Assembly (NCBI GenBank): GCA_001244265.2 | Contig: CDLV01000009.1 | Location: forward strand, 1 to 64,000 | Reading direction: 5' to 3' | From: Microbotryum violaceum | Lineage: Eukaryota | Length of the DNA stretch: 64,000 nt | Shown here: piece after piece, positions 1 to 59,683 of the stretch | How positions within the stretch are numbered: position 1 is the first letter of the stretch | Layout: the number at the start of each line of letters is the position of its first letter | Notes under the pieces: model-generated | Database searches by the model: none | The model's input: only the letters and a program-made list of their open reading frames with translations | What the model was told of the DNA's origin: nothing | Position numbers and translations under genes: made by a program

Positions 1-1596
1 GTGCCGAGCTGAGTGCGCCGACACAGATCAAGGCGAGGTGAGGTGAAGCGTGTCGATAGAGAACTTGGCAGATGGGTCGAGAGTCGGTTCGGTCGGTCGA
101 CCGATGGATCGGACCAAAGGTCGATGGTGCGGATGGGCGTCGATTGAATGTTCGCCGAGTCGAGCAACAGTTTCCGACAGACTCCGAGTTTTCCACGTCG
201 ATGAGAGTCGTCGATGAGAGTCGTCGATGAGACCCGTCGATTTGATCAAGAGAGATGCGAGCGGTCGCTCGACGACGCGAGTGAACGATGTGGGGAGGCG
301 GAGGTGATCCTCGAGTGAAGCGACAAAGATCGAGTGAGGTGTGCATCGATGCCAGACCACAGGAAAGTTGCGCATCTTTTTGGCGGTGCTGATGTGGGTT
401 GCGCACTGTGATCGCAGAGTAGGGTCGAACAAGTCACAGAGCGGTTCGGTGCGAAGCTCGGATGCCAGCGAGTCGGCCAACGCGCGATCTGAACTAGAGT
501 GATAAGTAGCAAAGACAGACATGAGGTGAGCGAAGAAGGTGAGAGCTTGGTACGATCTGAATGAAGAGCTCACCACATTCATCGGTCGAGCAGCGAGAGG
601 GCGACCGGGGTGAACGAGGCGATGCGCTGACCGGGCACGTGTACGACCGAGAACGCTCGAGCGAAGCATCGACGTGTGCTTGGACGCTGCTGAAAGTGAC
701 CACGCCCTCTCAGGGTGCAGTTTCAGTTGTACGGTGTTGATGATGGCAATGTTGGACATGTCATTAACCGTGTTGTGCGACGTCGCACCGTGCGCGCATC
801 AGAGTCGGGTCCAGGTGACACGTCGAGCTGCAGTTGGGAGAGATCGAGTTGCATCTCGCAGATTGCATGGCGCATGTGAACGATGTGAAAGCATGTGACG
901 TGGACATCCGAGGTAGTCATCGCAGTCAGAGACGTAACCGGTCGAGGCGTCTGAAGGCGAACGCGAGCACAAGTAGAGGTCCGGGCGCGGGTCAGGATCC
1001 GAGTTCGGTTCCGGGCCAAGTAAATGTCACCGTCATCGTCATTGTTCGTGATGGCTAGGCCGTCTATGTTTTCCCCCACGACGACATCAAGGCTGGGAAC
1101 GTGGGCCTGGAACATGGACCTGAAACATGGGCCAACTTCACAGACCCTCACCACGTCGCTTTCGAGCCATTCTTGGGTGCTGAACATGTTGTTTGTGTAC
1201 TCAAGTATATGGTTCTCTTGGTGGTGACCAAATGTGCGTGTGAGCTTGTGAGATGCGATTGAAGACACGATTCCTCGTGGTTTTGACGGGGTATCCCGTC
1301 AAAACTTTGGCTGGTGAGCTTGGACCCATTACCGAAACACATTGTCAATTAGTGGAATGTAAGGTCTAAGCCAGTGAAAGAGCTAATGTAATGTAATTAC
1401 CCGCTCGCGCTCCAAAAACCATGCGCCGTGGTCTCGCGCGTCTTTCCCACACTCACGCCAGTGGTCGCGCGACCGCGGCGTTGTTGGCGGCAACCTCACT
1501 CATTGTCCGTCCCGCAGACCGCCGTGTCCGCACCCGCGACCGACAAGTGGACGGACATGGGGTTGCGGTACGCACATGACAATTTCGAATGAACAT

Positions 1597-2896
1597 AAGC
1601 ACAATGCCTACTAGCACAAATCAAGCATGTACACACCAGTTGGGATCGGGACAGGATTACAACAAACTTATCTACGTCTACAAGTCCTCAAGTCTGCCGT
1701 GCCTCAGCTCCAGCGGCACACCGAAGCCCGAAATGGGTTTCCCATTTCGGGGATCGCGAGCGCCGGTGGCCGAAGGCTGCGAGTGCGGCTGCTCCCACCC
1801 CTCTCTCAAACACCACAGGGTGCTCGCGCGAGCTTCTTTGCAAGGGGCTCTCAGGAGTCTGTGCCATGTGGTATTTGGCAATTGCCCATATATACAGTGG
1901 ATTTCAGCAGTGCACGAGCAATTGACCGTGCACCTCGATTTGGCGGTTTTTGGCTTGTGCCGCCCTTCAACGTCGAAAAAGTGGATTTCAGCAGTGCACG
2001 AGCAATCGACCGTGCACCTCGATTTGACGGTTTTTGGCTTGTGCCGCCCTTCAGAGTCGAAAAAGTGGATTTTAGCAGTGCACGAGCAATTGACCGTGCA
2101 CCTCGATTTGACGGTTTTTGGCTTGTGCCGCCCTTCAGAGTCGAAAAAGTGGATTTTAGCAGTGCACGAGCAATTGACCGTGCACTGTCAATTTTCATTT
2201 TCACTGGGAATTTGGGGTTCTATTCCAAAACGTATCCGGAATTGGCCTGTACCCCACCTATGATACGTATATACTAGTGTCCTTGAGTATACTCAAAGCA
2301 CAATGCATAATAGCACAAATTAAGCATGTACACATCAGTTGGGATTGGGACAGATTTACAATAAACTTATTTACGTCTACAAGTCCTCAAGTCTGCCGTG
2401 CCTCAGCTCCAGCGATATACCGAAGCCCGAAATGGGTTTCCCATTTCGGAAATCGCGAGCGCCGGTGGCCGAAGGCTGAGAGTGCGGCTGGCCCCACCCC
2501 TCTCTCCAACTTAATACCACAGAATCCTCGCGCGAGCTTCTTTGCAAGCGCCTCGCGGAAGTCTGTGCCATGTGATATTTGGCAATGGCCCATATATACA
2601 GTGGATTTCAGCAGTGCGCGAGCAATTGACCGTGCACCTCGATTTGACGATTTTCGGCTTGTGCCGCCCTTCAGAGTCGAAAAAGTGGATTTTAGCAGTG
2701 CACGAGCAATCGACCGTGCACCTCGATTTGACGGTTTTTGACTTGTGCCGCCCTTCAGAGTCGAAAAAGTGGATTTCAGCAGTGCACGAGCAATTGACCG
2801 TGCACTGTCAATTTTCATTTTCACTGGGAATTTGGGGTTCTATTCCAAAACGTATCCCGGAATTGGCCTGTACCCCACCTATGATACGTATATACT
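1597..2896. repeat. Tandem duplication of a ~600-680 bp unit (1597-2275 and 2296-2896), each containing an internal array of 84-bp repeats
   Basis: Both units begin aagcacaatgc and end ccccacctatgatacgtatatact. The 84-bp repeat (gtggatttcagcagtgcacgagcaattgaccgtgcac...) starts at 1897/1981/2065/2149 in unit 1 and at 2601/2685/2769 in unit 2. Confidence 0.95.
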
Positions 2897-3230
2897 TGCA
2901 TCAACACGACCTGATGTTACTGAGTCAAAAATATTTTAATATTCAAAAAACTCATTTGTTTTTCCAAGTGGAGGTATTACAACTTCCACCACTAGACCTA
3001 GTAATGTCTATTAATCTGCTGGAGGTCAGAGCACCCCTGGAACAGGGGTACTTACTCAGCTGTCCAGCTCTTGAGCTCGCACAGACCACCTGACCTCCAC
3101 TTATTAGTCATGGCTGGCCTCTGAGAAATTCCTTCTACGTCTGAAATTCGGATTAGAATCTATTCTCTCATTAGCCTTCTCACTAATAGAATTTAGCAGC
3201 TAGTAGTGAATTCTTTCTGGTGAAAGGCCT

Positions 3231-3299
3231 TAGAAGCGCAAGCGCCTGATGAGTTTGTCCTTTGACAACGAAACAACTGCATTGTCGTGCAGCGCTCTA
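3231..3299 (+). ncRNA. Type I hammerhead ribozyme, predicted cleavage after C3286 (GUC triplet)
   Basis: Core CTGATGA 3246-3252. Stem II GTTTGTC/GACAAC (one bulged T, loop CTTT) closed by G3253-C3269. GAAA 3270-3273. Stem III (A)CAA/TTG(T) with loop CTGCA. GTC 3284-3286. Stem I GCGC/GTGC, extended by AGCGC/GCGCT and TAG/CTA across a small internal loop. Confidence 0.85.
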
Positions 3300-3544
3300 C
3301 TCACCAAGTCCAACTCTTCATTCGTCAAGACGACTACCTACTTCAAGTTTCTAACCCTAGATGAAAGAAGAAAGCAAGATATCTAGTGTACAGTTCGACG
3401 AGACCTATACTCGATCGAGAGGGTCCAAGCAAGTAATTAAATGAGCGAGCTTCGCCAAAAAGAAGAATACTGCAATTGCAAATTACCACCGCTCCTCATC
3501 TACCTCTCGCCCTCGTCCAAACACCAACTCAGCCCCTCAACCCC

Positions 3545-6500
3545 TCATGTCCGAGCTCTCTCGCGACTCATCCTCGTTCTCCTCAATAGCCAAGTGAACG
3601 ACTCCTTGACAGCATTCGGATTGGTGCTCGACACAGAGCTGCAAGCAAAATGCAAAAGGTCAATCAGTGAATACGCTTGAACGACCGACCAACTTCAGAC
3701 AATCGTCAACTCACGCCTCGAACCTGCCCAAGAATTCCTTCTTCTCCTCCTCCGAAGCGATCCTCGTGGGTAAATGCCCGACCGCGGTGGGAACGTTCTG
3801 CACCAATTCGTTCGCGAACTGGATCGAAAGCAGTCGCAGCACGGTCAACACGTTCCCTGTGATATCCTCGTCACCTTCTACCAGCGCGTCGATGAGCAAG
3901 GAGACGAGTTGTTGAGCCGTTGACGAGATCGTCGTTTTGATCGTCGTTGAAAAGGCCGAAGGACCGGGCGACCGAAGTGCATCGTGACCCACCACCGAAC
4001 GGACGGCATCGAGAGCGGCGAGGACAGTGTGAGGCGAGTACAATGTCAAGGTCGAGAGCACAGCTTGGAAAGCTGCGGGGAAAGCAGGTGAAGGGAGGAT
4101 CACGTCGGGACTTTGCTCTACGAGGTTGAGGAATAGGTGCATAAAGTCATCAAGTACTGCGAGCGAACGAAACAAAGCCCTGATCAGCATGGGAAACACC
4201 CAGTTTGACGTCATGTTATCAGCTTGCGCAACCCCTCACCATCCCCAATCTGCGCCGGTGGTCGCGACTGCAAGGCCTCGACAATCTTGGCCGTCTGTCG
4301 CTCAAACGCCTTCTTCACTGCCGCATCAAAACTCGCATCCTTTTTCCAAGCGAACGCATCGACCATCTTGGCCGTGATCCACAAATAGCTCGAAGCCGGA
4401 TGCCGCTCGAATTCGGTCGTCAACCTCTCCAACACCGGGGTCGAGAGAGGGAAGACGAGCTCGTCGAAAAAGTACAATCCTCTTCGGACCACGACGCTCG
4501 TCTTCTCCGCCACCATCGGATCCGTTCCATACCGAGCGAGGAAAGCATCGAGCACATGCCAAGCCTGTTCGGCCGTCGAGACGCACGAGGGAGGAGGTCC
4601 GTCGGGGAACCTATCGACGATCGCGAGCAAGCAGTCGAGTCGCTCGAGTGCGTCGCACGCCGACCTGAGTTCATCCTTGGTCGCATTCGCCGTCGCCTGC
4701 GTGAGTTGATGGACGACCTCGACGTTGGGCATACAAAAAGTCGAAAGAGCCTGAGGTGCCGTCGCCGGATCCATCGCGGCGATGATGTGCGCAATCGCGG
4801 CGGAAAGGTCGAGCAAATCTTCGGGTGCGATCTTGTTCGCGATCCCTTGCACGAACGCGTGCAAGTCGGGCAAAAAAGGTACGAGATGTTGACTACAGTC
4901 CTTACAGAGGTACTTCATCGCCTGCGCCGCCGCAGCCGAGACCTCGCCTTCTCCTTGCTCGAATCCACTCGAGATGAACGGCAAGAGTTGCTGAATGTGG
5001 TCGGGGTGGTAGTTGACCCATTCGGTGTACCGTCCGATCACAAGAATGGCGGCATAGCGAATCTTGGGGTGCGCTGGTAGACTCGTGACGAGCTTCAGGA
5101 TGGCGGGCATGATCTCGCTGTCGTGGACGTCGACTTGGGCGCCCATCGAGCGCATTGAAAACAGCGGCGCTTCAAGGTCCTGCCATTTGACGGGGCTCGG
5201 CGTCGTCGGTCGTGTCGCAGGTGTCGTCGAAGCCGACCCAGTGACGAGTCCCGGCGTCGAAGGCAAACTCGCGGCCGAGAGAGCGGACGTGATCTGTTCG
5301 TACGATTGGCGGAGACAGGCGATCGCGCCGAGGACGGAACAGCAGTCTTTGAGCGTGTCGCCGATGTCGTGACGGAATGCGCGGAACTGATCCCTCTCCT
5401 CTCCTACGAGCGCGGCGTCGTCGTCGGGGTAGTGTAGATGTCGGATGATGGTACCGACGAGTTGGGAAAAGACGCTCAAAATCGTCTGTGAGGTCGTGGC
5501 CGAAGTCCCTCTTCCCGATGCTCCGTTCGGTGTCGATGAACCCGAGGCGTCGCCCTTTGACCGCCCGAGCCCTTGTGAGAGTCGATACCAGAATCGAAGG
5601 GTGATGCCGACAACCTCGAGATTGTCGTAAGCGGCACATTCGGCAATCGCTTCGACAAGTGGTGCGAACGAGTCTTGGTGCTCGACGATCAATCGGGTGT
5701 AGGTCTCGCCCGCTTCGACGAGGATCCGACAGTAACCTCGCATGCGGTCCTCGTCGTCCCTCGTCACAGGATCGGAAAGCATCGGTTTAAGCGCCGTCAG
5801 CCGCGGTACGAGCTCCTGGATGATCTGGACGTTGTCTTCGAGCTCTTGGGTTTCATGAATGATGTCGACGAGAAGGTCGACGGCGGTGTCGAAGCATTCG
5901 TCCGAGGCGAGCGAGGCAAAGGCGGCAGAGAGGATGGCAGATCCGGCTAATGATCTTGAAGTGGACTGTCCTGTCCGAAGCCATGATCCGAGACAGGCGT
6001 AGCACTGGTTCTGGAGTGCCGGCGTGATGCCTGTGAAGGTGGGGCGACGGGCGGAAGTCAGTTCAGGCGCTGTTGAATTGCACCACCACGACCGAAACGA
6101 GAAATTGAGCACTCACCTGGTGCCTGAACATACATTGACAGTAAATTGACAACCTGTTCGCCTTTACTGGGCCCTTTGCCGTTGGCCTGCCCCCTCCCAA
6201 AGTCATTCTTGACCTCAATCTTGAGGTTCGAGGCATACTCCTCCGCAAGCACCTGCAAGAATTCGAGCAACGCGGCAGCCATAGCGGGGTCCTGGCCCAG
6301 CAGTTCGATCATAGAGCTAGTCGGGTCGGCCCATTGTTGCGAGGTGAGTTGTAGAGCAAGGTCGGCGAGGGCGATGCAGATCTGGGTGAGGATGACGCGT
6401 GGACCGGAGACGGCGAACGAGCGCAACGCCGAGAGCAACGAGTCGCGCAGGGGGACCATTTGGGGTTCGGGTAGTTGGTCGAGGTCAAAGCTGATCTACA

Positions 6501-6852
6501 GTGTAATAAGATGAGCTTACGGTCAGCCAAGGCTTAGCAGGGGCGTCGAGCTCGGACGGACTTTGGTGCGAAAGGTCTGAGCGGCAAACAGCTTGGGCTC
6601 GATCGGTGCATCGGGCGCGATCAAGATCAGATGCGACGTAGCCCAAGCTTCGTTCTGTACGACCAAGAGAACGATGATCAGCAGTCAACACTCGTCTCCT
6701 GCCTCAACACGAGCTCATGCACGCAGGCGAGGACGAACACTCTTTTGAAAGTTGCTGAGCCAGGCGTTGGCGGTCTCCTTGGCGTCCGAGCTTGGGTCGC
6801 TGTAGAGCACATTCAGAGCTTGGATCACCTGCTGTGTGGTTGCGTCGCTCAT
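3545..6852 (-). CDS. MTR10: Importin-beta family nuclear import receptor (Mtr10/transportin-SR), multi-exon
   Basis: N-terminal ALNVLYSDP...ANAWLSNFQK, then LFAAQTFR, ILTQICIALADLALQ, FRAFRHDIGDTLKDCCSVLG, WQDLEAPLFSMRSMG and IRYAAILVIGRYTEW, matching Mtr10/TNPO3 motifs. GT-AG introns link the ORF-track segments. Confidence 0.9.
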
Positions 6853-7649
6853 GAGGAAGACTTGTGGAGTGCTACGACGAGCGGGGAGGGAGGGTGGACG
6901 GTTGGGGTGGACGGTGTGGAGTAGATCGATGAGCGCAGTGGGTGGTACGGGGGAGCCAAGGATGGAGGGAGCCGCGCAATCACCGCCTGATAGTCAAAGC
7001 TGGTCAACAGACTGAGCGAAAAGGAATGTGCGATGAGGAGGCGGGCAGAGCGTCGTACGCGTGAGCAGGAGCGAAGCGGCGGGAACGAGAGCCGGCGCCA
7101 CGATCACCGCGTCAGAATCGAGCACGAGTAGTGAGCGCTACTAAGCACTAAATAGTAAATAGTAAGCACTGTCGAGCCGCCGAGCAACTTGAGGCCGGCG
7201 ATTATTGACCGCCGACGAGTGGGTGTAACACCTCTGAGCAAACCGTGGTCGATCTCATATTGTACAATCACACCAGTCTGCAAACAAATTCCAGCCTGCA
7301 CTCTTTCGACAACCAAATCTTGGGCTTTTTCCATCCCCAGCTGAGATTTCGAAGCGCCGTCAAGTCGGTAATACTAAAGATCGGTACGAGTCGGATCGAA
7401 TCCCTCGAGCGAATCATGACTTCGAACCCAAGAAATTCGCTTTCCCTCGTCACCTTAAACAAGTTCCGCATCTTCACACAGATCACTCCGACCGTTCGAC
7501 ATTCCAGTACGGTTAATCCTCGGACTTTGTTCTACCCGAACAATGAGAAAACAAAGAAGAGGACACCAGTCTTGAAGCAAGAGGTTGACGGTGCAATGAA
7601 GGCTGTTGGAATCAACGCTGCCGACTTCCACCACCTACCGCCTCGGTGC

Positions 7650-7849
7650 CGCGTCGATGCGCTATTAGTCGGTTACGGCCCAGTGGTGGCTCCTCCACCG
7701 CTAATACTAATAACTCCTCCACCGCTAATAAAAAACTCCTCCACCGCTAATAACTTTATTAGCAGTGGAGGAGTTATTAGCAGTGGAGGAGTTATTAGCG
7801 GTGGAGGAGCCACCACTGGGCCGTAACCGACTAATAGCGCATCGACGCG
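7650..7849. repeat. 200-bp foldback (near-perfect palindrome) with three ctcctccacYgctaat repeats per arm; MITE/foldback-like
   Basis: cgcgtcgatgcgctattagtcggttacggcccagtggtggctcctccaccgctaata at the left end is the exact reverse complement of the right end. Spacers between the internal repeats differ between the arms. Confidence 0.9.
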
Positions 7850-8358
7850 AGAGGTACTCATCAACGAAGAAGAAGAAAGAAGAGAGAGAGGTGAGAGGTG
7901 GGGGGCGCTTTTATACTCGCCCTGAGGCCAGGCTTGGCGCTTATCAAGCGACTCGAGGTGAAACTCTTCGCCCTTGCCATTGACGCTAGCCCGCGCCGCC
8001 GCCGCCCGGCATCGTAGCTCCCTCGGCGCTGCGATCTTCCGAAAGGAGATCCCTCAGTCACCCAAGGTCACCAAGTCGACCTGAGTTGTAGCAGCAACAA
8101 TGAAAAAAGCAGTGCTCTTGATCGTTGAAAAATGACAGTCGTATTTTGACGCATCTGCTCGTACTGCTCTGAGTCCGAACGACCCATTACTTGTGTTGCT
8201 CCTCCATGGCTCGGAGTCATTTTGAGGGGTCAGAAGATCGAGCTGATGAGCCAGGAGCGCGCCGGTCCCCGTCACGCGCAACTTGTTCACGTCTGACGCG
8301 ACGAACATCTCAGGTACTACCCTCTCACTGCCTCATATTTCGGTCTCTCCCCGACCCT

Positions 8359-8619: not shown

Positions 8620-9050
8620 CCGACCAGAACACCGAGCCCAAGACCGAATGGCCCACCGACTTCGGCAGTCAAGGCGAGCCGACCTCAGCGGGACACGTCT
8701 TCGACATGTCCTTGACGAAATTCGATCGTTTGAGAGAGCGCGTCCGGTGAAAACAACTCCTTCCCAAGAATTGTTCGGTATGGGGGCCATAGATGCGTGC
8801 TTGAAGATCATCGCTCGGCTTCGAGTCCGTGATCGGCTTGTCGTCCGCCTCAAGACCAAGACCGTATCGAGCAATGTGACAAGCGAGAGCAGCCCTCTCA
8901 AGCCCAGCAAATGCTCGATCGACGATCGTGGTGTCTTGGACGGCGCACCTCAGTCCTCGCAGCTTATCCGTGCCGTCGATGTCGACGTCAAAGTCAGGGG
9001 CTGTAGCTCCTGAATCCTGAGCGCGATCCTCAGTCAGTCAGAAAGTCCAT
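8620..9050 (-). pseudogene. Orphan tandem family, copy 1 (degenerate)
   Basis: Translates to PDFDVD...LRGLRCAVQDTTIVDRAFAGLE, matching the family motif. Frameshifts present; no downstream exons found. Confidence 0.7.
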
Positions 9051-9699
9051 GCTAGGGGCGTGGGGAGCCACATGGTGTTCGTTTTTGCTGCTGTTGGGCG
9101 GTGTGATTGACTGCATGACACCCATGGGCGAGGTGAGCGGTGCGTGGCAAAGGTGCGAAGCGATCTCCCCGATCATCACGCTCATCACTCGCCAAAGCCC
9201 CTCCAAGCCCGCGCTTGTGAGTAATCCCCCTGTGCTCCGTATGCTCAGCCTGGAAATTTCTGGCGGATGAACGAGTTTAAACTAATCAATATTGAACATT
9301 GAATTGTAAATTCTCATCGCTGAAAATATGATTTCTCCGGTCATATGAAACAGTCAACGCTCGAGATTTTCACGTCGACTAGTAATCACGCCCAGGAGAG
9401 GGGTTTCCCCGCCACGTGATATTACCGGAGAGCTCGCCAGACACCGCTTCGACGTAGAGTCGTCAAAAGGGCGGGCAACAAGTAGTGAAAAGTTGAGCAT
9501 GTTTTCGAGCTCGAATAAACTGTGTATGTGCACTAGTGACCGTTGGTAGAACCAAATAATATCATTGCAATGCAAATGCCTTGCATAAATGTAGATGTAT
9601 CGAGCATACACCTAAGGCGTGAGGAACACTCAACCGATGGACCACTAGGGATGACAAGACAAGTGAGATATATTTTTTCTTGAAAAAGACACCAAACGT

Positions 9700-9920
9700 T
9701 GCTACGAGCTTGAAAGTATGCATCACCTCGGAAGCTGAGATCAGAGCAGCAAGCCCACGAGCGACGATCGTCGTGTCTTGGACTGCGCATGTCAGGCTAG
9801 GAATCGGGTCGGGATTGCTGGCAACGTCCAAAAGTCGACATTGGGGATGACTTGACATGAGGTGATTTTCGGGGTTCTCGAGTCGACCAAAATACACCGC
9901 CGAGCAAAGGGGCTTGATCT
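9700..9920 (-). pseudogene. Orphan tandem family, copy 2 (fragment)
   Basis: SLTCAVQDTTIVARGLAAL motif; similarity stops after it. Confidence 0.65.
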
Positions 9921-10365
9921 CCACCCCAACATGATCTCACCCCACGCGATGGGGTCCTCCTAAGCAGAATGCCCCGCTGGATTTCGCCTCGAGTTGAAGC
10001 GGCGCGATACGTCACCATCGAGCATAACATAATCCAAGCAGCGTCTATCTCATGTAACTTAGTCGCTGAGATCTTCAATCACAAAAACCGATATGATCTT
10101 GCAATGCAGAGAATGGAAGCAGCTTTCAAAGGTGGATCAAGTGAGAAACTGAAGGCAAGGCCGCGACCGCAGTGTGCCGAGAACGTCAATGATGCGAGGT
10201 TTGTGCATATGACCAAGGAAACAGAGTGCTGTAGCCAAATTCGGAGTCTCATCCGAGAAGCTTGCACGAGAGGACACTTCGTCTTTGGTGATCGATCGAC
10301 TTCCTCGGACAGCGCTGAGAGCGATGTATAGAGTGAGCCGGGGCGAACGAGCACGAGCACGAGAG

Positions 10366-11661
10366 CTACAACGCGCCAGAGATTATGGGCAAGCCATCGA
10401 AATCGTACTTGGGAAGCGAATACATCTTGTCGCGGACCTTGTTCTTGACGTCTTCGCTGGGAGCTTCTATCTCAAAGCTCGGATGATGGGTCATAAACAG
10501 CGAGATCAAAACAGATATACCAGGACGATGGGGGGCGTCCGAATTGGTGCTCGGATTTTCGACCACTGCCGAGTAGCCGTGATCGAGGAGATGCAACCTT
10601 CCGTCGACCTTGACTGTGCATGAGAAAGCAGGATCCTCCTTTGTTCAGCACTTTTCACGACTGTTAACAGCGGATTCGCGGACTCGCCAAGCTCGACCAG
10701 TATGAAGTAAGGAGATGCAATGAGGAGTGCCAAACGGGCATTCTCGCAATCGATAAGACTGATAGCGGCCTGAAAATGAAATCGCAAGCGCAGAGAAACT
10801 GTCAGATACAAAGACACGTATCAGATCTGTGGCGGTATTCTCTCCACCCAACTTCCCTGTGTCAACACATTCTCGTAATCCCGCCCCTCAAAGCCTTCGA
10901 AAAGCACCTCCAGGAAACGACGATCGACCCCTTTTTTGCGACATGACTTGCAAGCCCGCCAAGCCGTCTGTGTAAATTCGCAAGCCCTCTTTGTTGTACT
11001 TGAGCTCGAAATCTTCGAATTCGATCGCTACAACCGTCGCTAAAGTTTGCGGAGCCGCAATCGAGGACGAAATCTGACTTTTACCGCACTCGCGGACGAG
11101 GGAAAAGTGGCGACGGAAATCCGTAGGTCCCGACTTGGTCAACTTGAGGTCCGGATTGTCCCACAGCAATTTCACCGCATCTAGGATAGAAGTTGACATC
11201 AAAAGTGGTAGATTTTCCATCGTCATCAAATCCCTGAATAGCTTTTCCTTCAGGTCCGGTCCGAACAGCTGCTCCCGAATCCCGAGCTTCGGCACGGACG
11301 GATCGTCGGCCACCGCGGCTTGATCACCCCCACTTCGAGCGTCGCGAGCGAACGGCTTCTCGAGCGCCGCAAGCGCACGAGCGACGATGGTCATATCTTG
11401 GACCGCACACGTCAGTCCTTGCAACCAGTCGGTGAGGTCGTCGACGTCGAGCTTGGGCGATTGGAGGTGACGACCAACCTTCACCATCTCGACCCGCTGC
11501 AAGGGGGAGGCATCGCGGAATCGGGGGCATAGCAGGGGATTCTCGGCGGCGGTGGGTGCCGACCTCGAAGTTGCCGCCGTGTGCGTCTTCAAACAAATGG
11601 GCGTGAAGCGAGGACGAAACAAAGAGGAAAATCCAAGCGAGCCTATCATTCGAGTCGACAT
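10366..11661 (-). CDS. Orphan tandem family, copy 3 (three exons; possible mitochondrial presequence)
   Basis: GLTCAVQDMTIVARALAALEK, VVAIEFED, NARLALLIASPYFILVEL and HLLDHGYSAV...LISLFMTHHPSFEI, shared with copies 4-6. Apparent frameshift near 10.9 kb. Confidence 0.7.
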
Positions 11662-12410
11662 CAGTGGTAGGCATGAGTCGTAGGACGAAGAGGTCTTGAG
11701 TCGGCGAGCCCGAGTCGACGCGCGGGAGCTCTTGCGCAGCTCCTCCAAGTCCCGAGCTGCTAAGCGTGCGTGTGGCCGGACTGACCCCCTTGTGCTCGAT
11801 CTCGAATTTCGTGGAGTTTACAGCCGATTGAAGATAGCTCATGTACAAGTGACTTCACCTTCTTGGTATAGAAAACTTTGAACTCTAACGTAATACCACA
11901 AGCTGAAAAGAGTTCGCCGGATTGCTTTTTTTCCGAGCTTCGCTTCGATCATCTCCACAAAACAACCCCACACGCTCCGATCGCCTTAGCTGACCTAGAA
12001 TCCCAGCTTGCTACGATGCCGAAGAATACGATAGTCATTCATGTGCTAGAATGCGCCAAAGTATTTTCTTGCCATGCGAACGAACACGTAGGGTAGGTTC
12101 GAAGACGAGTCAGCCTGGAGATATCAGGTGTCTTTTCTTTTGGTGGGACAGAAGCCGATCAATGAAGCGATCGATCGGTAATTCTCTGTACTGTCGCATG
12201 ATATTAGAATTTGGACTCAAAGATTTACCTAAGAATCGTTGTCGCAGAATATGCGATCGGAGAAATAGTAAGTTGTTTTTCATAGTTAGTTTAAATATAT
12301 ATATTGTTTAAAGTGCATTACACTGCTAGGCGCTCTTTTAACGGGGGAAATTTTTAGCGGAGAAGTAAAGAAAGCAACGTGGAGAACACGAACAAGCGCC
12401 GGCACGCAGG

Positions 12411-13738
12411 CTAGTACAACTTCACCACTGTGGGTTGCACGCCACTGAAGTCATACTTGGGCAGCATGCTCGTCCTTTCACGAATTTTGCGCTTGACCTC
12501 TTCTCCTGGGCCTGGGATCTTGAAGCTCGGAGGATGATCCATGAACAGCGAGATCAAACGCGCGAGGCAGGGACGATGGGCGACTCTGGAGGTGCTATCG
12601 GAGCCTTTGTCAGTGGCCGAGTAGGCACGATCGAGAAGTAAGTGCATCCTTCCATCAATCTTGGCTGGGTTTTTTGATGAGAACGTTTCAGCTCAGTGAC
12701 ATTCCTTACAGGATCACCAACTGAGCCAAGGCCCACTCACCGAACTCGGCTAACATAAAGTAAGGATTTGCGATGAGGAGAGCGAAGCGGGCATTCTCCT
12801 TGCACAAGATGGTGATGATCTGTTGGACAGAGAGTCGGGCTGTGTTCTCAGCCCGAGAGGAGTGTACGCTTCATTGGCACTCCTCATCACAATCGAGCCT
12901 GACTGACTCACATTCAACAAACCGTTCTCGACAGATCCGTTCTCTACATCCTCGACCAGAAACTTCACGCAGCGCATGTCTACGCCTCCACGAGTGGTCG
13001 CTTCAAATTCATCCAAGGCAGCTTTGTTGCTTCCGTCACCCACGACTAGTGTCGTGAGTTTCTGGGGTGTGGGTGTGGACGACCATGAAGCTTAGGGATC
13101 TTCGGCGTTTCGGCGGACGAGCGAGTAGCCACGAAGGTATCTCGGCGGCGAAGGATCGGAGCGACCGACAGGTTCCAATCGCTGCTAAATGTCCGCACGG
13201 GACCCATGATGGCGCAACGCAGCAACAATTCAAAATCCTTTGCCGAAAAAATCTCCTCGTCAAGATAGCACTTCGCTCGAGTTCCGTAAACCCATTTCTG
13301 AATCTCGCCCGGCTTCATCGTCTCGAACTCGTCAACTGCAGCGATTTGACCGCGTCCGAGTCCACATTGAGCGTCGCGAGTTACCCCGTTCTCAAGCGCC
13401 GCGATCGCACGATCGACGATGGTCGTGTCTTGCATGGCGGTGGTCAATCCGAGAAAGTCTGTGTTCTCAATAGCTTTGGTTTTTCCGAACACCTTGTGCG
13501 TGTACGTGTCCACGTCGAATTCAGGCGATTGCACGATTTGAGCCATGAACGCGATCGTGATCCTGGACACGGGGGAGAGGTCGCGGAAATGGGGCGACAG
13601 CAGTGGATCTATGCCGTCGAGAACTCGGGGCGTCGCGTCGGCGTGGGTTGCGAGTGAACGAGTAGAAATGACGCGAGGCAGAACTTGGCTGCGGAATGAG
13701 GGGAAGGATCGAAGGGTCCACATCGTTCGAGCTGACAT
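12411..13738 (-). CDS. Orphan tandem family, copy 4 (three exons; likely mitochondrial presequence; frameshifts)
   Basis: GLTTAMQDTTIVDRAIAALE, ENARFA and HLLLDRAYSA...LISLFMDHPPSFKI motifs; same intron positions as the other copies. Confidence 0.7.
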
Positions 13739-14281
13739 GTTTGCTGAACGGATTGAAGGGAGAAGAGGATGTGACTCGTACGCGGCGGGGGCGGAGAAAG
13801 TTTAAGGAAGGAGTGTGGGTCCGACTAAAGTTTACGACTCCGCGCCTGCTGCCCCCTGTGCTCGCTAAACTTTAATCCGATGCACCGGGTGCATAGCTCG
13901 TCGAACAAGAGATTATATGTGGTGAAAAGTCTAAGATACTTGTGAATCAAAATTTATGTGGCGTTTTCATAACTTTCGGGACTCGAATTATATTCCTTCT
14001 GTTGGTCGATCGAAGAACACCGAAGAGATCCCCACATGCCCCCCACCCCACACAGCATCCGTCGCCGAGCTCCTCGGGCCTTTCAAGCCTCGTGCTCTCG
14101 AATGACTCCTCGCCGTGAAGTGGCACAAACAATTTGAAGAGCAGACACACAGGAATCAATATCCACTGAAACACAGACTCGAAGGCAGCACAAGACCTAA
14201 ACCCCGATCACGAAGCCTCAGTGACTCCGGACCACCATTCGAGCGATCAAGCGATTGACGGAGCAGGGCCGAGTAGGAGAC

Positions 14282-15470
14282 CTACTCCCCCGGAATCGAC
14301 GGCAACAACCCAGTCATGTCGTAAGCCGAACCAAGTTCCGTTGTCTTCTCTCGAACCTTGTACTTCACATTTTCTCCCGGACGGTCGATCTTGAATTCGG
14401 GGAAATGATTCATGAAGAGGGCGAGCAAGACAGCAAGAACGGGGCGATAGGGGGCCGACGATCCAGAGTCGGGACCTTCATCGACGGCGGAGTAGATGCG
14501 GTCGAGGAGGAGGTGAGTTTTGCCTTCGACGTGAACTGCTCGAGTCAAGATTGAGACGAGCCAGTTGAAGCTACACCGCTCAGGGAGCTGTTCGTACTCC
14601 GCTCACCAAGCTCAGCCAGCAAGAAATAAGGGGTCGCGATGAGAAGAGCGAAGCGAGCGTTCTTGGCTTCAGTCATGCGCAGGATCATCTTTTGAAAAGT
14701 ATGAAGATGGACGTTACTCAGTTCTTCGTGGGCAGTTGTCATCTCCCTCAATCCACAACTGGCAAAGCTGGGTACTTCACCTTGGTGAGCACACTCTCGG
14801 CATCTCGTCCCTCGAGTTTGTCCACCTGATGGATTAAGGTCTTCATGAAAAGCAGATTTACACCTCGGCGCGAGAAGGCTTCCAGCTGCGCTAGCGCTCG
14901 CGAATGTATCAGGAGACCATTCTCATCTAGTTCTTGATTCAAGTCTTCGTACTCGACTACGACAAAGGTCGTCAAAGGTCGATTTGTCGCCGACGAAGAG
15001 GAAGCTTGACCATCACCGGGTCCTTTGACGAGTACAAAGTTGTACATCTCGTCCTCTTCAGAGGTGACGAGGTTGAGGTCTTGATCACGAGCGAGGATTC
15101 GAGCGATGGGGAGGATGGCACGTTTGATCAGGCGAGGCAGGTTGTCGATCGCGATGATGGTACGATGGGACATGTGCTTCGGTTGGGCCCCCCACAGGTG
15201 GTCCTGCAGATCCTCGCCGTGCTTCAAGTCCTCCAGCTTGACACCATCCGCCATGCAGCCAGCGAGAAGTCCCTTTTCGACAGCAGCGACCGCACGATCG
15301 ACGACGGTGGTGTCCTGCACGGCCGACGTGAGCGCCATCATCGGATGCTTGGTGAGGTCAAGTCTCGGCGCTTGAAGCGACAGCGCCACAAGCACACGCA
15401 CGAAGTCCCCCATGTTCTCTGGCATGCTGAAGCCAGAAGAATCCTCCGTTCCGTCATTCGCAGTAGGCAT
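14282..15470 (-). CDS. Orphan tandem family, copy 5 (three exons, apparently intact)
   Basis: ALTSAVQDTTVVDRAVAAVEK, FVVVEYED, NARFALLIATPYFLLAEL and HLLLDRIYSAV...LLALFMNHFPEFKI; GT-AG introns. Confidence 0.8.
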
Positions 15471-16030
15471 GTTCGATGATGATGAAGATGACGTGCTGAG
15501 TTGAGTCAGAGTACTCGGAGCGTGGCGAGGATGCTTGTAGTGAGTAGGCCGCGACGAGCGTGGGAAGAGTAAGAGTGATCTCCGCTCAACTCAGGGCCGA
15601 TCCGATGACCCCGAAAATGCTCCTCCGCAGCACGTCTGGCCAAGCGGGCGCGGGGGGGCACTGACCTCCTGAGCTTAATCACCGATCTCAGATTTCCTCA
15701 TGCTGGCCCGAATAGATGGTTCTTCACCAGCGGTGTTTTATCCCACTGAAAATCTCAAAACTTCTGAACTAAGCATGGCACAGACCATGCGCAAAGCAGA
15801 GCGAGTTAGAAATCAACTCTGGGGCTTCATCGCGATCACCCGACCGGTCACACCGGCCTTTGCGGTTCCACGCTCGGAGCTCGGCTAGAATCGCCGGCCA
15901 CAGGCATGCAGCACAGCTGGACTGCTGAGTCGTATTACAATGATGGCAAACAGAATGCTGGAAATGCGTGAGGGTACGACGTAACACAAATTTGCTGGAG
16001 TGGATCTGTGGTTAAAGAGAGCTCCCGATC

Positions 16031-17299
16031 CTAGTCCCCTTGCGACTCCAAGGGTCGAATGGAAAACTTGCTCGGATCATACGCTCCTCCAAGCTCCTTG
16101 ACTTTCGTCCTGACCTTATCCTTGATCACCTCACTCGGGCCATCGATCTTGAAGCCTTGTTTGTGATCCATGAATAACGCGAGGAGAAGTGCAAGGAAGG
16201 GACGGTACTCGAGGTCCGAGTCGGCCGATTCGGTCGGATCCTCGCGTACGGCGGTGTAGACTTGGTCGAGGAGGAGGTGCCATTTGCCGTCGATTGTGAC
16301 TGGTAGATCCGGGTGTTAATCAAACGATCTTAATTGAAACTACCGACTGCAGGATCGACCATGGCCAAGTACTCACCGAGTTCGGCGAGCATGTAGTACG
16401 GCGTCGCAAAGAAGATGAGGAACCTTCCATTCTTCGCCTCCTGCACGCTCCAAGCCGCCTGCCGAATCGACCGTTCGGCGTAAGTATCGAAGAAAGACTT
16501 GATTCGGTTTCGATCCTGAAACAGCGATCGGCCTCACCTGCATCACCAGGTTCTCCAAATACCTCCCTTCGGACCCCTCAAGCATGAGCTTGACGAAACG
16601 GATGTCAATCCCATCGTACGAACTTGCTTCGAACGACGCCAAGAACTCGGAATGCACGCGGAGGCCGTCGGAGAAAACGGGCTCCCCTCCATCCTCGATG
16701 TTGTTGGCGACAAAAGTGACGAGGGTTTCGTTGGTCGCGGTCGATGACGACGCTTGGTTGCCCGGTCCTTTGACGAGCGAGTAGTTCCTACAGCAATCGA
16801 GCCCCTCCGTCGCAAGGTTCGATCCTTGATCCTCAGAGAGAAGCTGAACAGTAGGTAAAATGATCTCTTGGACGCAACGATGAAATCTGTCGATCAGCAT
16901 CATCTCGCGATGCTCTGCCTCTCTCGCCTCCTTGCCCCACAACCAGTCCTGCAGATCGACCAACTTGAAATCCTGATCTTGCATCTCGCTCTTCAGCTCG
17001 GGGCTCAACTTGCTCCTACTAGGCTGTTCGAGCACACCCTTCTTCAACGCCGCCAAAGCACGATCAACGATACTTGTATCACGAACAGCGCAAGTCAAGC
17101 CCATCAACGGGTGTTGAGAGGGATCGAAATCAGGCGATTGTAACGACAAAGCGACCATGCACTCTGCGACCTCAACCATCTTCTCTTGGGTCCGAAACGC
17201 GAAGGAGACGTTCTGCGGACCATGAATTATTGGTGTAGACGGGGATGAGATAGACTTGGGTGACTTGTTCCTCGGTTTGAGGCTACGACAAGGAGGCAT
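16031..17299 (-). CDS. Orphan tandem family, copy 6 (three exons)
   Basis: GLTCAVRDTSIVDRALAALKK, NGRFLIFFATPYYMLAEL and HLLLDQVYTAV...LLALFMDH; one short frameshift in a C-run of the last exon. Confidence 0.75.
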
Positions 17300-17773
17300 G
17301 GCGTGCGTGTTGGGGTGGGGAGAGGTCGATGCAAGCGAGTGAGGTGCGGAGGCAGAGGAGCAATTCGAGTGAGGGGCGAAGCGAGCGCCAAGCTCCACCC
17401 CCGCCCCACCCCCGCATTCTCTCAACGTGCATGAGCCTCCTGAAATCGGGGGGCGGGGGCGCACTCGGAATTGAGCCACGACGAGATTTTCAGTCAGAAG
17501 AGATCATTCTGGTCCATCCAAGCTGTCCTTCACGATAATCTGTCGTACATCAACTGCTTGAAAGAATGCTTGAGGTTGGCCACGCCGTCTTGCGCAGCTA
17601 GAACGAACCTCCTCTCACCGTCGCCCTCGGCCATGAACGTGATATCATACGCAATGATTAGGCTAACATTTCCACGACATCATACCGCCCTCCTGAATCC
17701 TCCTATAGTCGTACAACAAATCAAAAGACTGCTCTTCCAAGAAATCCCCCTAAGCTTCCTCTATTTTCCCAGC

Positions 17774-44578: not shown

Positions 44579-45790
44579 GATGAGTGCAAACGCTACCCAA
44601 AAGGAGCTGACGATAGGCGGTCAACGTAGGTTGGGGACAGGGAGAGGTGATGAGGGCTCGAAGCTCGCTGTCGCCGTCGGAGCTTCGGAGGCCGCGCACC
44701 TCCCAGTCACCTCCCCGCACCTCCCCGAGCAGGGACGCAGCAAAAGCTCCGACTACGAGCGGCGCCATGTGGGGTTTAGTGATTTTCATTAGAGACCCGG
44801 CACATTGCTTTGATTCACTGATCTCTTCTCATTACCCTGTATCTGTAAACGTGGTCTAACCCGAAATTTGTTCACCGTACATTGGCGCTGGAAGGAGGGT
44901 GTGCCAGTGAGGAAAGGGAAGGGCGCCGAGGGAATGGATTGTTTCATGGCTGCTGCTGATCTACTTGTGGGCTTGGGAAAGTAGATAATCGACCATCAAA
45001 CATTCTATCCTCTTCGAAACGTCGACGGTAAGGTGTAGCGAAGGGGCTTGTTACCTATGACTTACCAGACGACCACTCTAGTACAATCTCACTGTCCTTC
45101 ACCGTCTCCCGTTTTTCGGACTGTTCCGCGGAGCTGCCCCATAGAATGCAGTATAAAGAGTTGGAAGGAGCGACGAGCGGTCGAGGAGGTCTGTGCGGCG
45201 TACACGCGAGTGCAAGAGGGCCTGAATAGAATTTGATAGGCCTGATCCCGCGCGTGACAAACTGGGTCTTTTCCTCACGTTTGGCTCTGCATCAAATCAG
45301 GTGTGTACTTCGCGTATTCATGCCTCAATGTGTTAAATGATTAACTCTGACGTTTGGCTCTGCATTTTGGGCTGTATCAAAGGTTGCATCACATTGCAAC
45401 AACTTTTTGCAACAGGATTGGGAGGCTTTGTTGCACATCCTCCGATACCTCAAGGGAACCCGAGACGTCAACCTTCTGTTCCGCAAGGCGGAGGGTGCTC
45501 CTCTCCTCAAGGGCTTTGTTGACGCTGATCACGGAGCGGACCCGGAGACTCGTCGAAGTGTCACAGGTTTTGTGTTCCTTTGCGCGGGTGGCGCGGTCTC
45601 GTGGATGTCCAAGCGACAGGTGCTCGTCACCGTATCCAGCACCGAGGCCGAGTACGTTGCTATTATTAGAATCTAAAGCCGAGGCACGAGATACGTTTAG
45701 TACAAGAGCCGAGGATGATAGTAAAGACAGTTAGAGAAAGAAGAGAAGCACAGAGTAGGAGCGCGCGAGGGGACTAATATCAACAACTAG

Positions 45791-46155
<365 letters not shown>

Positions 46156-49142
46156 CTAGTAACTAATTGTGTTTGGTAATAGAAGTGGGATGAAACAGCA
46201 ATATACACTCTGACACCCCCCCGTGCTGTCATACCACTGCACCTCGTAAGCCTAAATTCGTCCGATGGAAGATGAACGGCTTGGGAACCAAGGCCTTGGT
46301 GAAGATGTCGGCAAACATGTCGCCAGTGGCGATGTAGCGGACCTCAATCTCTTTCTCAGCAACCCTCTTGCAGACATAGTGTTTTGAGATGCGAACGTGA
46401 CGAGATCCCTGATGGTTGGTCGGGTGTTGTGCCAGAGCAAGCGAACCTTGGTTGTCACCATAGAGCACAACTGGACCGGGAACCGGAGCGCCGAGTTTGC
46501 TTAGGAGTTTGCTCAGGTGAATGGTGTCCCCGCTAGCGTACAAAAGAGAGAGGTATTCCGCGTTGGTAGTAGACTTGGCGACCCTGTGCTCCCGTTTGGA
46601 ACACCAAGCAATGGCAGCTCCGGACAAGATGAATGCGTAGCCCATGGTCGATTGCAAGGTTGTCAGGCAGGCTCCCCAGTTTGCATCCGAGTAGCCATGG
46701 AGCGGTTGGTTGGTGTTGCGGTAGGTGAGCCCCAAGTCCAGCGTGCCTTTGATGTAGCGGAGGACGTGCTTGATGGCTGTCCAATGCTCCGGGCCGGGTT
46801 GCTGCGAGAAGCGCGCGAGGTAGCTGACCACAAAAGCAAGGTCCGGACAAGTGCCAACTGCGGCGTACATCAACGAACCAATGGCCTGCAAGTAGCGAGT
46901 GCAATCCTCAGGGGTAGCAAACAAGTTCTCGAAATTGAGGACGACACCGGGTTGCATGGGGACGCCTGCCGGCTTGGCATTGGCAAATTGGAACCTGGCC
47001 AAGATATCTTGAAGGTAGTGTTCTTGGGAAAGTGTGATGGACCTGTTGTGCCCGCGTTTGACTTGGATGCTGAGGATGTATTTGGCAGGCCCGAGACCTT
47101 TGATACCATATGCAAGTTCCAACATGTCAAGAACCCTGTCGATCTCGGCAGTAGAGAGCCCAACCAACAGCAAGTTGTCAACATACAAGGCAATGTAATG
47201 AGAGTGCCCGTTGTGTTCGCAGCGGTAGATGCAGATGTCTGATCAGGTGGGCACGTATCCGAGGGAGCGCAAAGTCAAGTCAATCTCCGCATTCCAGATG
47301 GTGCCCGCTTGGCAAAGTCCGTAGATGGATTTGGACAGCCTGAGGATCTTGCCAGGCATGTCGATGCCTTGTGGAATGCGCATGTAGAGAGGCTTGTCAA
47401 GTTTGCCGTGGAGGTACCCCTTGTTGACGTCGGCTTGATGGACATGGTAGCCGTTGGCCGTGGCAAGGGCGATGACAGCCCAAATGGACATGAACTTGAC
47501 GATGGGGGCATAGTTCTGCTCGAAGTTGATGCCAGGGCGTTGGGCACAACCGTGGGCAACGAGACGAGCCTTGTGATCGATGATGTCCCCGTGCTGGTTG
47601 CGTTTAGTTTGGAACACCCAGCCCGGCCGTAAGAGGATCTCACCCGCAGGGAGCTCACAGGAGTCAATGACTTCAAACACCTTGTATTTGTTGAGAAGTG
47701 AATCAAATTTGTTGTGTGCCGGGCGGGCCACCCCATGTGTCCTGTTGTCCCAATCGGATGACATTGCCCCAATGGCTAGATCTCGGACAACGGATAAGTC
47801 ATGCTCCGCAAAGCCGGCTTTGGTGGACGCAAAGGCACGGAGCATGCCCTGGAAGGCGAAAATGGGTCCATCTGTAATACTCTGTAGTTACTCAAAGGCC
47901 CGATGCGCGTCTGGCCTTAGGCATTGCCGGAAAGTAGGGCCTCTCTTCCTTTCCGACCAGTTTATTCTTTGGAATACATACTCGTATCCTGTCACCTGCA
48001 AGGCCCGACGCTGGGGCCTTACATATTTTTTTTGACATCCGATACAAGAATTCGCCAAGAACACTCCGTCACCGCTTCAAACCGGCTCGACGTACACACG
48101 ACGCAGGTCGTTTGCCGCACACCCCGCACGACACTTGTCGTTTGTCATACAGAGCCGTCTCTGTTCGCCGTCCACATTACACGTCGCAAGACGTTCGCCG
48201 CACCCCGCACGACTCGCGTCGTTTGTCATACAGAGCCATCTCTGTTCGCCGTCCACATCATACGTCGCAAGACGTTCGCCGCATTGCTTACACGACTTGA
48301 TCGTTCGCCGTCACACACAACTGCTGAGGTTGTTCGCCGTTTACGCGACCGTCGTCGCTCGTCCGCCCTTTTTCTTTTCACTTCGCACGCGACCGCCACC
48401 GTCGCTCGCCGAACGCGCCCCTCCGTCGCTCGCCCGCACGGTTTCGTTTCTTTTTTTGCTTCGCACGCAATTGCCGCCACCCGCCCGCGCCCATCCGTCG
48501 CCGACGCCCCGCTTTCCAATCTGGCCCCACAAACCAGAAACAGCAAGGATCAGGGACCCCCACCAAACAAGGACGCTCCGCCGCATCTCGTACCAAAGTC
48601 GATGCCGAAGATGTCGGACCGAGCGCCCACACGACTCCACATGCCAGAGCTCAAGGCACCGTTTACGGCGGAGGACGTCATCCTCTGGCTAGGCGACTGC
48701 GAGGACGCAATCGAGGCATTCGGGATCTCAAGCGTTCCGATGAGACGTTGACGGTCGTTCAACAAATCAGGGAAGCTGGCATGAAAATGCAGGGCGAAGG
48801 GAAAATTTGGTGGAATCAGCACAGGGATGAACTGAAGGCATTGACAACATGGGATGCCTTTGCGGCTGAGGTGAGGGAACGGTTCCTGGACTCGGGCTTT
48901 GTGCTCACCGCCGAGCACGACTTCTACCGTACGCGACAAGGGTCGGATTCTTTCACTACGTACGCTGCGAAGCTAGCGAGTCGGCGCGCAACCTTGGGTA
49001 TTGGCAAGGACGGGGGAAAGTTCATCAATGACGACCAATTCAAACGACACTTGCTACATCACGCCAACGACCTACTGTATGCGCGTACCACCTCAACTGC
49101 CGGCTTTACACTCTCAACATTCACAGTGAACTTGCTCATTGG

Positions 49143-51065: not shown

Positions 51066-51647
51066 ATTGGACACATGACGGCGGTCGCTTCCTCGCTGGG
51101 ACTCGAGTGGAAAGGTCAAGTGTCCGTCACCAACTCCCGTATCACTCGCTCGCCACGGGATCTCAAATCAAACATGGCAAGGCGCACACCATTGACAGCT
51201 GAGGCCCGACAACAGTGCATTGATGAGGGTTGCTGCTTCAACTGCCGGGAAATGGGGCATAGTATTCGCGAGTGCCCAAAGACAACAGGCGGGACAATTG
51301 GGGACCACCCGGATCAACTCAACTTCATGGGCGACCAGGCATACCGTCAACCGTGGGGTTCCGACTCAAGTGACTCGGAATTGGATGAGGCGTTTGAGAA
51401 TGAATGGCTGGGAGGATCTGAGAAAGAAGAGGAGGATGAAGAAGAGAAGAAGTAGATAAGGGAGGCAGGGTTTGGTTCAGGTGGTGGAGAGTGTAATACT
51501 CTGTAGTTACTCAAAGGCCCAATGCGCGTCTGGCCTTAGGCATTGCCGGAAAGTAGGGCCTCTCTTCCTTTCCGACCAGTTTATTCTTTGGAATACATAC
51601 TCGTATCCTGTCACCTGCAAGGCCCGACGCTGAGGACACGGACACGC

Positions 51648-56625: not shown

Positions 56626-57394
56626 CCGCCTAAGGGGGTTTTAGTGGGTATGGTTGATTTTGTTCCAAGGTCAACGAGTCCCACACTACTGGCCTCGCCA
56701 GTGTGCTTAACTGCATTCCCTCCGTCTTTTCCGAGGATTTTTAGGCATTAATATAGATATGCTGTTAATGAAATCTATTAGATAAAAAAAAGGGGCCTTA
56801 CACCATCAGGTCCGCCAACAAGGTCTTCCCGCGTGATGAGGGTGGGAACGAGTTGGCGGCAAGTCCGGGGGCCAGCAATGATGTTCCGAGCGTCGATTTC
56901 ACCGTACTTCCCTGGATTGGGACCAACCTTGGCAACATCGCCGTACTCCCAAGTGGGTTTGACTTTGGCGAGTGGAGTTGGTTCTGGTGGTGCTGGTTCC
57001 GAAGGACGCTGCGGCAGGTGGATCAAAGAAGTGGCATCGTCGTTGAGCAAAGGCGGCTGGGTGGGTTTGACGAGCACGGGAGGTAACGGTGTTGCCGGAG
57101 CGTCGGCAGGTGGAGGACGGGGATAGAAACCCGGAACGGAAGGCGGTGTGACGCGGGCGGGGACGGCAACAAAGGGGAACTCGGTTTCAAGGAACGTCAC
57201 ATTCCGGCTCAAACTCACGTGCATTGAGGAGGGATCGAGAAGGCGCCAGGCTTTTGCGTGTCAATTGTAACCCACAAAGACCAGCGGAATCCCTTTTGGG
57301 TCAAGTTTGTCCCAACAATGAGCCGGCACAGTGGCCCAGGCGTGACAACCAAATGCTCGAAGCGCTCCCACGGTCGGGGGGGCGCCTGACCAGC

Positions 57395-57511
57395 TGTAAG
57401 GCTCGGTTGCCTTACGCTATTTAACTACCCTTCTGATTTCAATATGCATCTATTGAAATTGTCAGTCTTTTGGACTGTGTAACCTAGTCGTGAAGGGCCT
57501 GGGGTATTACA
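57395..57511 (-). mobile_element. 117-bp solo LTR inserted into the integrase of element B, TSD CCAGC; termini related to the D-element LTR
   Basis: Minus-strand termini TGTAATAC...GCCTTACA. CCAGC at 57390-57394 and 57512-57516. Confidence 0.88.
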
Positions 57512-59672: not shown

Positions 59673-59683
59673 GGCTCATAACC
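59673..59683 (-). promoter_or_regulatory. Primer-binding site of Copia B (GGTTATGAGCC, Ty5/copia-type half-tRNA-iMet PBS) containing the gag ATG
   Basis: Directly abuts the 5' LTR end. The ATG at 59679 opens MSQPAWGD. Confidence 0.85.

Follow-up and report, generated by a model that had tools for sequence, protein, structure and literature searches.

The window analysed here is a 64,000-nt stretch of the Microbotryum violaceum genome (contig CDLV01000009.1), and close to its start a type I hammerhead ribozyme motif (3231–3299, plus strand) lies within a non-coding repeat (2897–3357) next to the 3' end of MTR10, a gene on the minus strand. The region 2300–4300 was compared with contigs of four public runs (X16, X17, X18 and X20). 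X16, X17 and X18 behave as DNA of very close relatives; X16 shows 1 difference from the window in 972 nt (3329–4300), and one X18 contig crosses the intron at 3637–3712 unspliced. X20 is spliced and RNA-like, and comes from a relative that is ~7% diverged in the MTR10 exons. The last exon of MTR10 (3545–3636, minus strand, stop codon at 3545–3547) was assigned from its domains and from a spliced X20 contig. The gene displays Transportin-3/Importin-13 domains, and the encoded fragment is 57–58% identical to Sporobolomyces and Rhodotorula proteins in a search of longer proteins only, the organism being a member of the Microbotryomycetes. Its introns at 3637–3712 (76 nt) and 4157–4239 (83 nt) correspond to the joints 3636/3713 and 4156/4240 of the spliced contig, the alignment of which stops at 3547, the last base of the MTR10 stop codon counted on the plus strand. 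The hammerhead ends 246 nt from this stop codon, on the opposite strand, in agreement with the distance of about 250 bp and the antisense orientation given in the initial annotation, which was also right in stating that the window has no Penelope reverse transcriptase (RT). The RTs present are those of a Copia element (RVT_2) and of a LINE (APE plus RVT_1), and no Penelope-type RT was detected among the 55 longest of 151 ORFs of 120 aa or more.

Several other repeats share the window. Positions 1597–2896 hold two tandem copies of a ~690-nt unit, each with 2.5–3.5 copies of an 84-nt tandem repeat, and the 84-nt repeat part reaches a summed depth of 11258 in the DNA-like run X16, when compared to ~21 in the single-copy flank. 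Other copies end at 2895/2896 with differing flanks; the sequence at 1597–2896 is distinct from the hammerhead element, which it adjoins, and represents a high-copy element or a satellite. X20 contigs also cover the first part of the 690-nt unit (2300–2600) at a depth of ~245 versus 215 for the MTR10 mRNA contig, and a repeat related to this unit may be transcribed in the ~7% diverged relative. The Copia-type retrotransposon (45158–60421) is bounded by 208-nt LTRs at 45158–45365 and 60214–60421 and has two interruptions. One is the LINE, which is apparently intact (ORF 52369–56622, carrying APE and RVT_1, and a poly(A) stretch near 56785); the other, at 47862–51635, is a near-palindrome that bears gag and has arms of up to 570 nt that are 97–100% complementary. 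Finally, six paralogous segments of a repeat family (D3) occupy 8900–17500 at distances of 0.8–2 kb, with minus-strand ORFs of 120–376 aa and without Pfam match, and form a tandem gene family without assigned function.

The motif at 3231–3299 is complete, with the conserved core and three helices, as established by reading of the sequence and by a script check. The core elements CUGAUGA, GAAA and GUC follow each other in the expected order. Nucleotides C3 to A9 (CUGAUGA) lie at 3246–3252, with G5 at G3248 and G8 at 3251; G12, A13, A14 and A15.1 (GAAA) lie at 3270–3273, with G12 at G3270; U16.1 is 3285 and C17 is 3286, so that the core reads GAAAC...GUC and the predicted cut falls between 3286 and 3287. 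Helix II (3253–3269) consists of the closing pair G3253–C3269, a bulged U3254 and five pairs (UUGUC/GACAA, 3255–3259 with 3264–3268) capped by the loop CUUU, an arrangement recovered by reading, folding and the descriptor used below. Helix III (3273–3285) has 4 bp (A3273–U3285, C3274–G3284, A3275–U3283 and A3276–U3282) and the loop CUGCA. Helix I amounts to 12 bp in three blocks, 3242–3245/3287–3290 (4 bp), 3235–3239/3292–3296 (5 bp) and 3231–3233/3297–3299 (3 bp). Read from its outer end, its 5' strand (3231–3245) gives 3 bp, the bulged A3234, 5 bp, the AA of an AA/A internal loop placed 4 bp from the core, and 4 bp, and its 3' strand spans 3287–3299. Much of helix I is made of GCGC-rich self-complementary words. 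Helices II and III are closed by loops and helix I is open, which is the type I topology. In the fold of 3190–3357 a possible, weakly indicated outer extension of helix I pairs UGGUGA (3218–3223) with 3301–3306, and the A3306G variant seen in other copies would preserve a U–G pair there. The initial annotation had the core, its order and the numbering of G5, G12 and the cut right, and it correctly described three pairing helices with a G–C closed stem II and a short stem III, although it made no mention of the bulged U3254. By analogy with its ribozyme family, an RNA of this sequence would be a hammerhead cleaving at 3286/3287.

Folding calculations gave an energy of −14.7 kcal/mol for the three-helix hammerhead, and when the core was forced to be unpaired the minimum-energy fold was exactly this structure, at −15.1 kcal/mol. 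The unconstrained minimum is a competing structure of −19.1 kcal/mol, 4.4 kcal/mol more stable than the hammerhead fold, with a z-score of −1.0 against shuffles. These energies neither prove nor exclude ribozyme activity. We then considered how often the motif would be met by chance. The window contains nine CTGATGA sites on both strands, and only the one in this hammerhead passes a three-helix type I descriptor, provided that one bulge is allowed in helix II. No descriptor match was obtained in 40 Mb of second-order Markov-random sequence; with the core planted into 3.6 million random contexts (the total of nine of ten batches), 48 pass the lax descriptor, 22 pass it without a bulge and 3 reach the helix lengths of the candidate. 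With 37 CTGANGA cores per 128 kb, the chance matches expected per window range from ~5e-4 (lax) to 3e-5 (candidate level), which would amount over a scan of ~250,000 windows to roughly 120 and 8, respectively. With 8–120 matches anticipated by chance in such a scan, the motif by itself is no proof, and its context has to be taken into account.

The hammerhead belongs to a repeat copy of 461 nt (2897–3357), delimited by contig ends and depth and devoid of coding capacity, each of the six frames being interrupted by stop codons. The summed contig depth of X16, which is not copy number, is 43.9 over 2903–3237, 125.2 at 3286 and 222.8 at 3306, where five contigs overlap, when compared to a flank value of 21.3 from 3372 onwards. 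If 3305–3357, the greater part of the tail between the hammerhead and the repeat end (3300–3357), is given a depth of 222.8 and the sequence beyond the repeat one of 21.3, the bin mean of 180.6 is reproduced, and by the same bin-mean arithmetic the depth step could fall anywhere from ~3287 to 3300. Run X18 shows a summed depth of ~7 over the body and 16.2 in the bin 3305–3371 versus 3–4 in the flank, and X17 has a 118-nt contig (3233–3350) at a depth of 25.6 versus 3–5. X20, from the ~7% diverged relative, gives no cover over 2903–3505, which is uninformative on expression. Among the contig ends listed, those that run loose past 3357 enter differing sequences in X16, X17 and X18, and the 5' boundaries of other copies fall at 2894 (X16, X17 and X18) and 2991 (X18); the foreign flank before 2894 is identical in X16 and X18 and was not found in the window. 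The several variant contigs, the divergent flanks and the common end together identify a dispersed repeat, the copies of which all stop at 3357 but vary at their opposite side. The hammerhead had initially been taken as a single copy, and this holds for the window, where neither a second copy of the unit nor a tandem arrangement was found, but not outside it, where several variant contigs cover the motif.

Target-primed retroelements are usually recognised by copies that have one 3' end in common and 5' ends that are nested. As the common end at 3357 with differing 5' sides is the pattern left by retroelements copied from the 3' end, the sense strand would be the plus strand, which is the strand of the hammerhead, and the predicted cut lies 71 nt before the common 3' end. 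Rfam recognised no known RNA family in 2897–3357. Two possibilities were rejected: a tRNA-derived SINE, as a tRNA scan of 1–8000 found none, and an origin of the tail from the LINE of the window, which has a poly(A) end and no sequence in common with the element. These boundaries also bear on the proposal that the host has retained a self-cleaving site by which antisense or read-through transcripts that run into the MTR10 3' end are trimmed. The position of the motif, 246 nt past the MTR10 stop on the opposite strand, is what speaks for it; the motif, however, sits in a dispersed repeat whose other copies have flanks unrelated to this locus, its boundaries track the repeat and not the gene, and nothing ties it to MTR10. 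We consider this proposal, one of the two put forward in the initial annotation, to be unsupported and very improbable.

Variation between copies was then followed across the element. At position 17 of the core (H17) the variant C3286A accounts for 38.2 of the 125.2 depth in X16 (one contig) and for all of the depth in X17 (25.6 of 25.6). The hammerhead consensus allows A at H17. Among the differences listed, this change from C to A is the only one by which other copies deviate in the hammerhead region. Besides 3 small gaps, an X16 contig over 2894–3285 carries 16 substitutions, each of them located upstream of 3231. For a stretch of 69 nt the expectation is ~3 changes; relative to the rest of the element the conservation is not significant (~P = 0.16), and the low variation over the hammerhead is suggestive only. 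As the copies are young, their agreement over this stretch does not show selection.

The extreme end of the repeat reads CTAACCC (3351–3357, plus strand), with the boundary at 3357. In reverse complement this word gives the telomeric G strand, (TTAGGG)n, and TTAGGG is given as the Microbotryum telomere repeat in published work on the genus (PMC4469406; bioRxiv 10.1101/2022.08.03.502670). The word has 5 occurrences on both strands of the window (128 kb) versus 4.09 expected, and the probability that it lands by chance on the repeat boundary is ~1e-3 or less, when all six registers and a small boundary error are allowed. The telomere complement measures 7 nt, one unit plus one base, and follows 51 nt after the hammerhead fold. 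The three listed flanks of other copies start with A, so the telomere register is not continued beyond it. No telomere array was found in the window or at its start; a single place in the window, 8578, comes near to two repeat units, from which it deviates by one mismatch. The copy is internal, beside MTR10 and not on a telomere array, with the end of the repeat 188 nt from the MTR10 stop.

The same layout was searched for in metagenomes. A first scan with a degenerate form of the window hammerhead returned no loci. A second scan, with the pattern CTGATGA, 8–30 nt, GAAAC, 60–90 nt and TAACCCTAACCC, returned 39 matches distributed over 37 loci. Of these loci, 9 hold a full type I hammerhead, with the cut 48–76 nt ahead of CCCTAA repeats; in the window the cut lies 65 nt ahead of the same telomere register and 71 nt before the end of the element. 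Several further loci resemble hammerheads with one mismatch when inspected by eye. Upstream of the metagenome motifs we scanned 9 of the 15 ORFs of at least 150 aa, from seven loci. An RVT_1 ORF lies just upstream on the same strand in four of them (L008, L011, L021 and L034), the match in L021 being slightly under the Pfam cutoff, and none of the 9 scanned ORFs matches an endonuclease family. Similarity between the window element and the 37 loci is confined in blastn to the level of the core and helix II, and to loci L004 and L017. Helix III spans 6–34 nt among 11 metagenome hammerheads, and MAFFT did not align their 3' halves.

Two types of metagenome hammerhead can be set beside that of the window. 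Five loci (L004, L008, L017, L021 and L026) carry minimal type I hammerheads without a real helix III (GAAACUAGUY); those of L004, L008, L017 and L021 lie 69–76 nt ahead of CCCTAA repeats, an RVT_1 ORF is upstream in two of the five (L008 and L021), and helix II of L004, L017 and L021 resembles helix II of the window hammerhead. Locus L032 is like the window in its type I topology, its helix III of 4–5 bp, its helix II of 4 bp and its cut 71 nt ahead of CCCTAA repeats; just past the ribozyme it also matches GCTCTNCTCACCA at 12 of 13 positions, which may be chance in CT-rich sequence. Unlike the window copy, L032 ends in 13 telomere repeats, and it has no other sequence similarity to it. No RT match was found in two ORFs scanned from the 2.1 kb upstream of the L032 hammerhead.

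The metagenome loci also served as controls for the covariance models. A check with the Rfam hammerhead models had been proposed along with the initial annotation, and it returned no hammerhead family, neither over the whole window at gathering score nor in stretches of 271 nt, 89 nt and 1.9 kb at E up to 5–10, where only sub-threshold miRNA and lncRNA noise appeared. The same models (release 15) were run on seven metagenome hammerheads vouched for by their telomere-repeat context (L003, L018, L019, L030, L032, L008 and L021). None of these reaches gathering score; two have sub-threshold matches of 23–28 bits, to a type III model of the wrong topology or to RAGATH-1, and the remaining five yield no hammerhead family at E up to 10. 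Since Rfam misses all seven control hammerheads at gathering score, its negative result at 3231–3299 carries little weight, and covariance-model screens probably under-count the telomere-adjacent type I hammerheads which these models miss.

In the light of these results we evaluated whether 3231–3299 could be a chance look-alike, never active, within an unrelated repeat. Such a view would be in keeping with the missing Rfam match, the bulged helix II and the more stable competing fold, the 8 to 120 matches expected over ~250,000 windows, and the GCGC-rich self-complementary words that make up much of helix I. It would, however, require three independent features to coincide, namely the motif, its sense-strand place 71 nt from a common 3' end, and the telomere-complement tail. 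It also leaves aside that the same layout is found beside RT genes in metagenome loci, and the Rfam negative on which it draws is of little weight. We therefore judge a chance look-alike to be quite unlikely.

The explanation we prefer, and hold to be probable though well short of certain, is that the hammerhead is the 3' module of an endonuclease-less Penelope-like element of the Coprina type, present here as a truncated copy or as a non-coding, non-autonomous derivative. Gladyshev and Arkhipova reportedly described, in 2007, endonuclease-deficient, telomere-associated Penelope-like elements including a Coprina clade. In endonuclease-deficient Penelope-like elements and Terminons, a 3'-terminal hammerhead fold is followed by short reverse-complement telomeric repeats, which pair with G-rich overhangs (PMC6431247, PMC8557442). 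For fungal Penelope-like elements that lack an endonuclease, hammerheads have been on record since 2014; they are of type I and active as monomers (Cervera and De la Pena 2014, PMC4209133). For Microbotryum violaceum itself, there is a mention of Coprina elements (PMC8557442). The literature search returned no paper pairing Microbotryum with hammerhead ribozymes, no fungal name matched in the searchable one of the two supplementary files of PMC4209133, and for Coprina the supplement of PMC8557442 holds protein alignments only.

The window copy shares with fungal Coprina-clade elements the type I topology, the canonical core, the position in a non-coding 3' region on the sense strand (cut 71 nt from 3357), the adjacent reverse-complement telomeric word and a basidiomycete host, the mention of Coprina for Microbotryum included (PMC8557442). 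Published fungal hammerhead variants are described as having a large helix III, in contrast to the 4 bp found here (PMC4209133). Coprina-clade elements sit on telomere arrays, whereas this copy is internal beside MTR10, away from the telomeric repeats of a chromosome end, carries a telomere complement of 7 nt and has no RT nearby; no Penelope/telomerase-like RT ORF without endonuclease is present among the 55 longest ORFs of the window. The Athena elements and Terminons of bdelloid rotifers also resemble it, in that at the 3' end of the RNA a hammerhead fold precedes a short stretch complementary to the telomere repeat, and in that copies are 5'-truncated (Arkhipova and Yushenova 2019, PMC6431247). 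They differ in that their repeats follow immediately after the fold and in several units, when compared to a 51-nt spacer and one unit in the window, and in having minimal hammerhead variants in a different host kingdom (PMC6431247). Against a Penelope-like origin stand the lack of an Rfam hammerhead match, the bulged helix II, the competing fold that is 4.4 kcal/mol more stable, the lack of a Penelope-type RT in the window, the internal site beside a housekeeping gene, the 4-bp helix III and a telomere-like tail of only 7 nt placed 51 nt past the fold. We conclude that the element probably works like, and is derived from, a Coprina-type element, which is less than demonstrated membership of that clade.

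If so, the element would be transcribed on the plus strand, and nucleotides 3231–3299 of the transcript would fold as the three-helix hammerhead and could cut between C3286 and G3287, as members of the ribozyme family do. The terminal CUAACCC, 51 nt past the fold, might then anneal to the telomeric G strand, or else to some other DNA 3' end that is exposed or broken, and a Penelope-like RT supplied in trans would start the cDNA at this tail, by analogy with the published endonuclease-deficient elements. The expected outcome would be copies with a shared 3' end that are shortened at the 5' side. The role of the hammerhead in Penelope-like elements is itself called unknown in the literature (PMC7761336, PMC8557442).

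A retrozyme-like element lacking an RT could leave a similar locus, with the non-coding unit of ~125–460 nt being whole, and not a truncated coding element, and being cleaved by its own ribozyme, possibly turned into a circle, and then copied back by an RT of Penelope-like or LINE type; we regard this as unlikely. It would account for the lack of any ORF in 461 nt, for a depth that peaks over the last 50–120 nt, and for L032, the locus with the hammerhead most like that of the window, where neither of two upstream ORFs scanned matched an RT. Two copies with a common 5' boundary at 2894–2897, as in a discrete short element, also suit it, although this boundary could be one paralogue seen in several runs. 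Animal non-LTR retrozymes are likewise small non-coding elements with a canonical type I hammerhead and a presumed Penelope-like RT acting in trans (Cervera and De la Pena 2020, cited in PMC7761336). Animal retrozymes, however, are built of tandem type I hammerhead repeats (PMC7761336), whereas each copy here has a single hammerhead and the window holds neither paired ribozymes nor units with at least two hammerheads in tandem. No retrozyme encoded in a fungal genome is described in the titles and abstract beginnings among the literature matches listed. The other proposal of the initial annotation, an orphan retrozyme or pLTR, thus came near the retroelement origin that we favour, but the hammerhead is not an orphan, being part of a mobile-element family.

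A further possibility, doubtful but worth stating, is that the element represents a fungal non-autonomous hammerhead retroelement, 125–460 nt long and RT-less, which borrows a Coprina-type RT and lands at internal breaks as well as at telomeres, its shortest copies starting at or near the ribozyme cut. The depth step in X16, from 125.2 at 3286 to 222.8 at 3306, is compatible with short copies that start at the cut, without being proof of it. Should the short copies prove to begin at the cut, nature itself would have recorded in them that the ribozyme works in vivo.

Returning to a Penelope-like origin, which we consider the best account of the locus, fungal nuclear genomes offer few hammerheads, and most descriptions of them concern Penelope-like elements that lack an endonuclease and are attached to telomeres. 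The window copy adds a Microbotryum example, with a canonical ribozyme of short helix III at an internal site, and it suggests that small tail-only or non-coding derivatives of Penelope-like elements spread within the genome.
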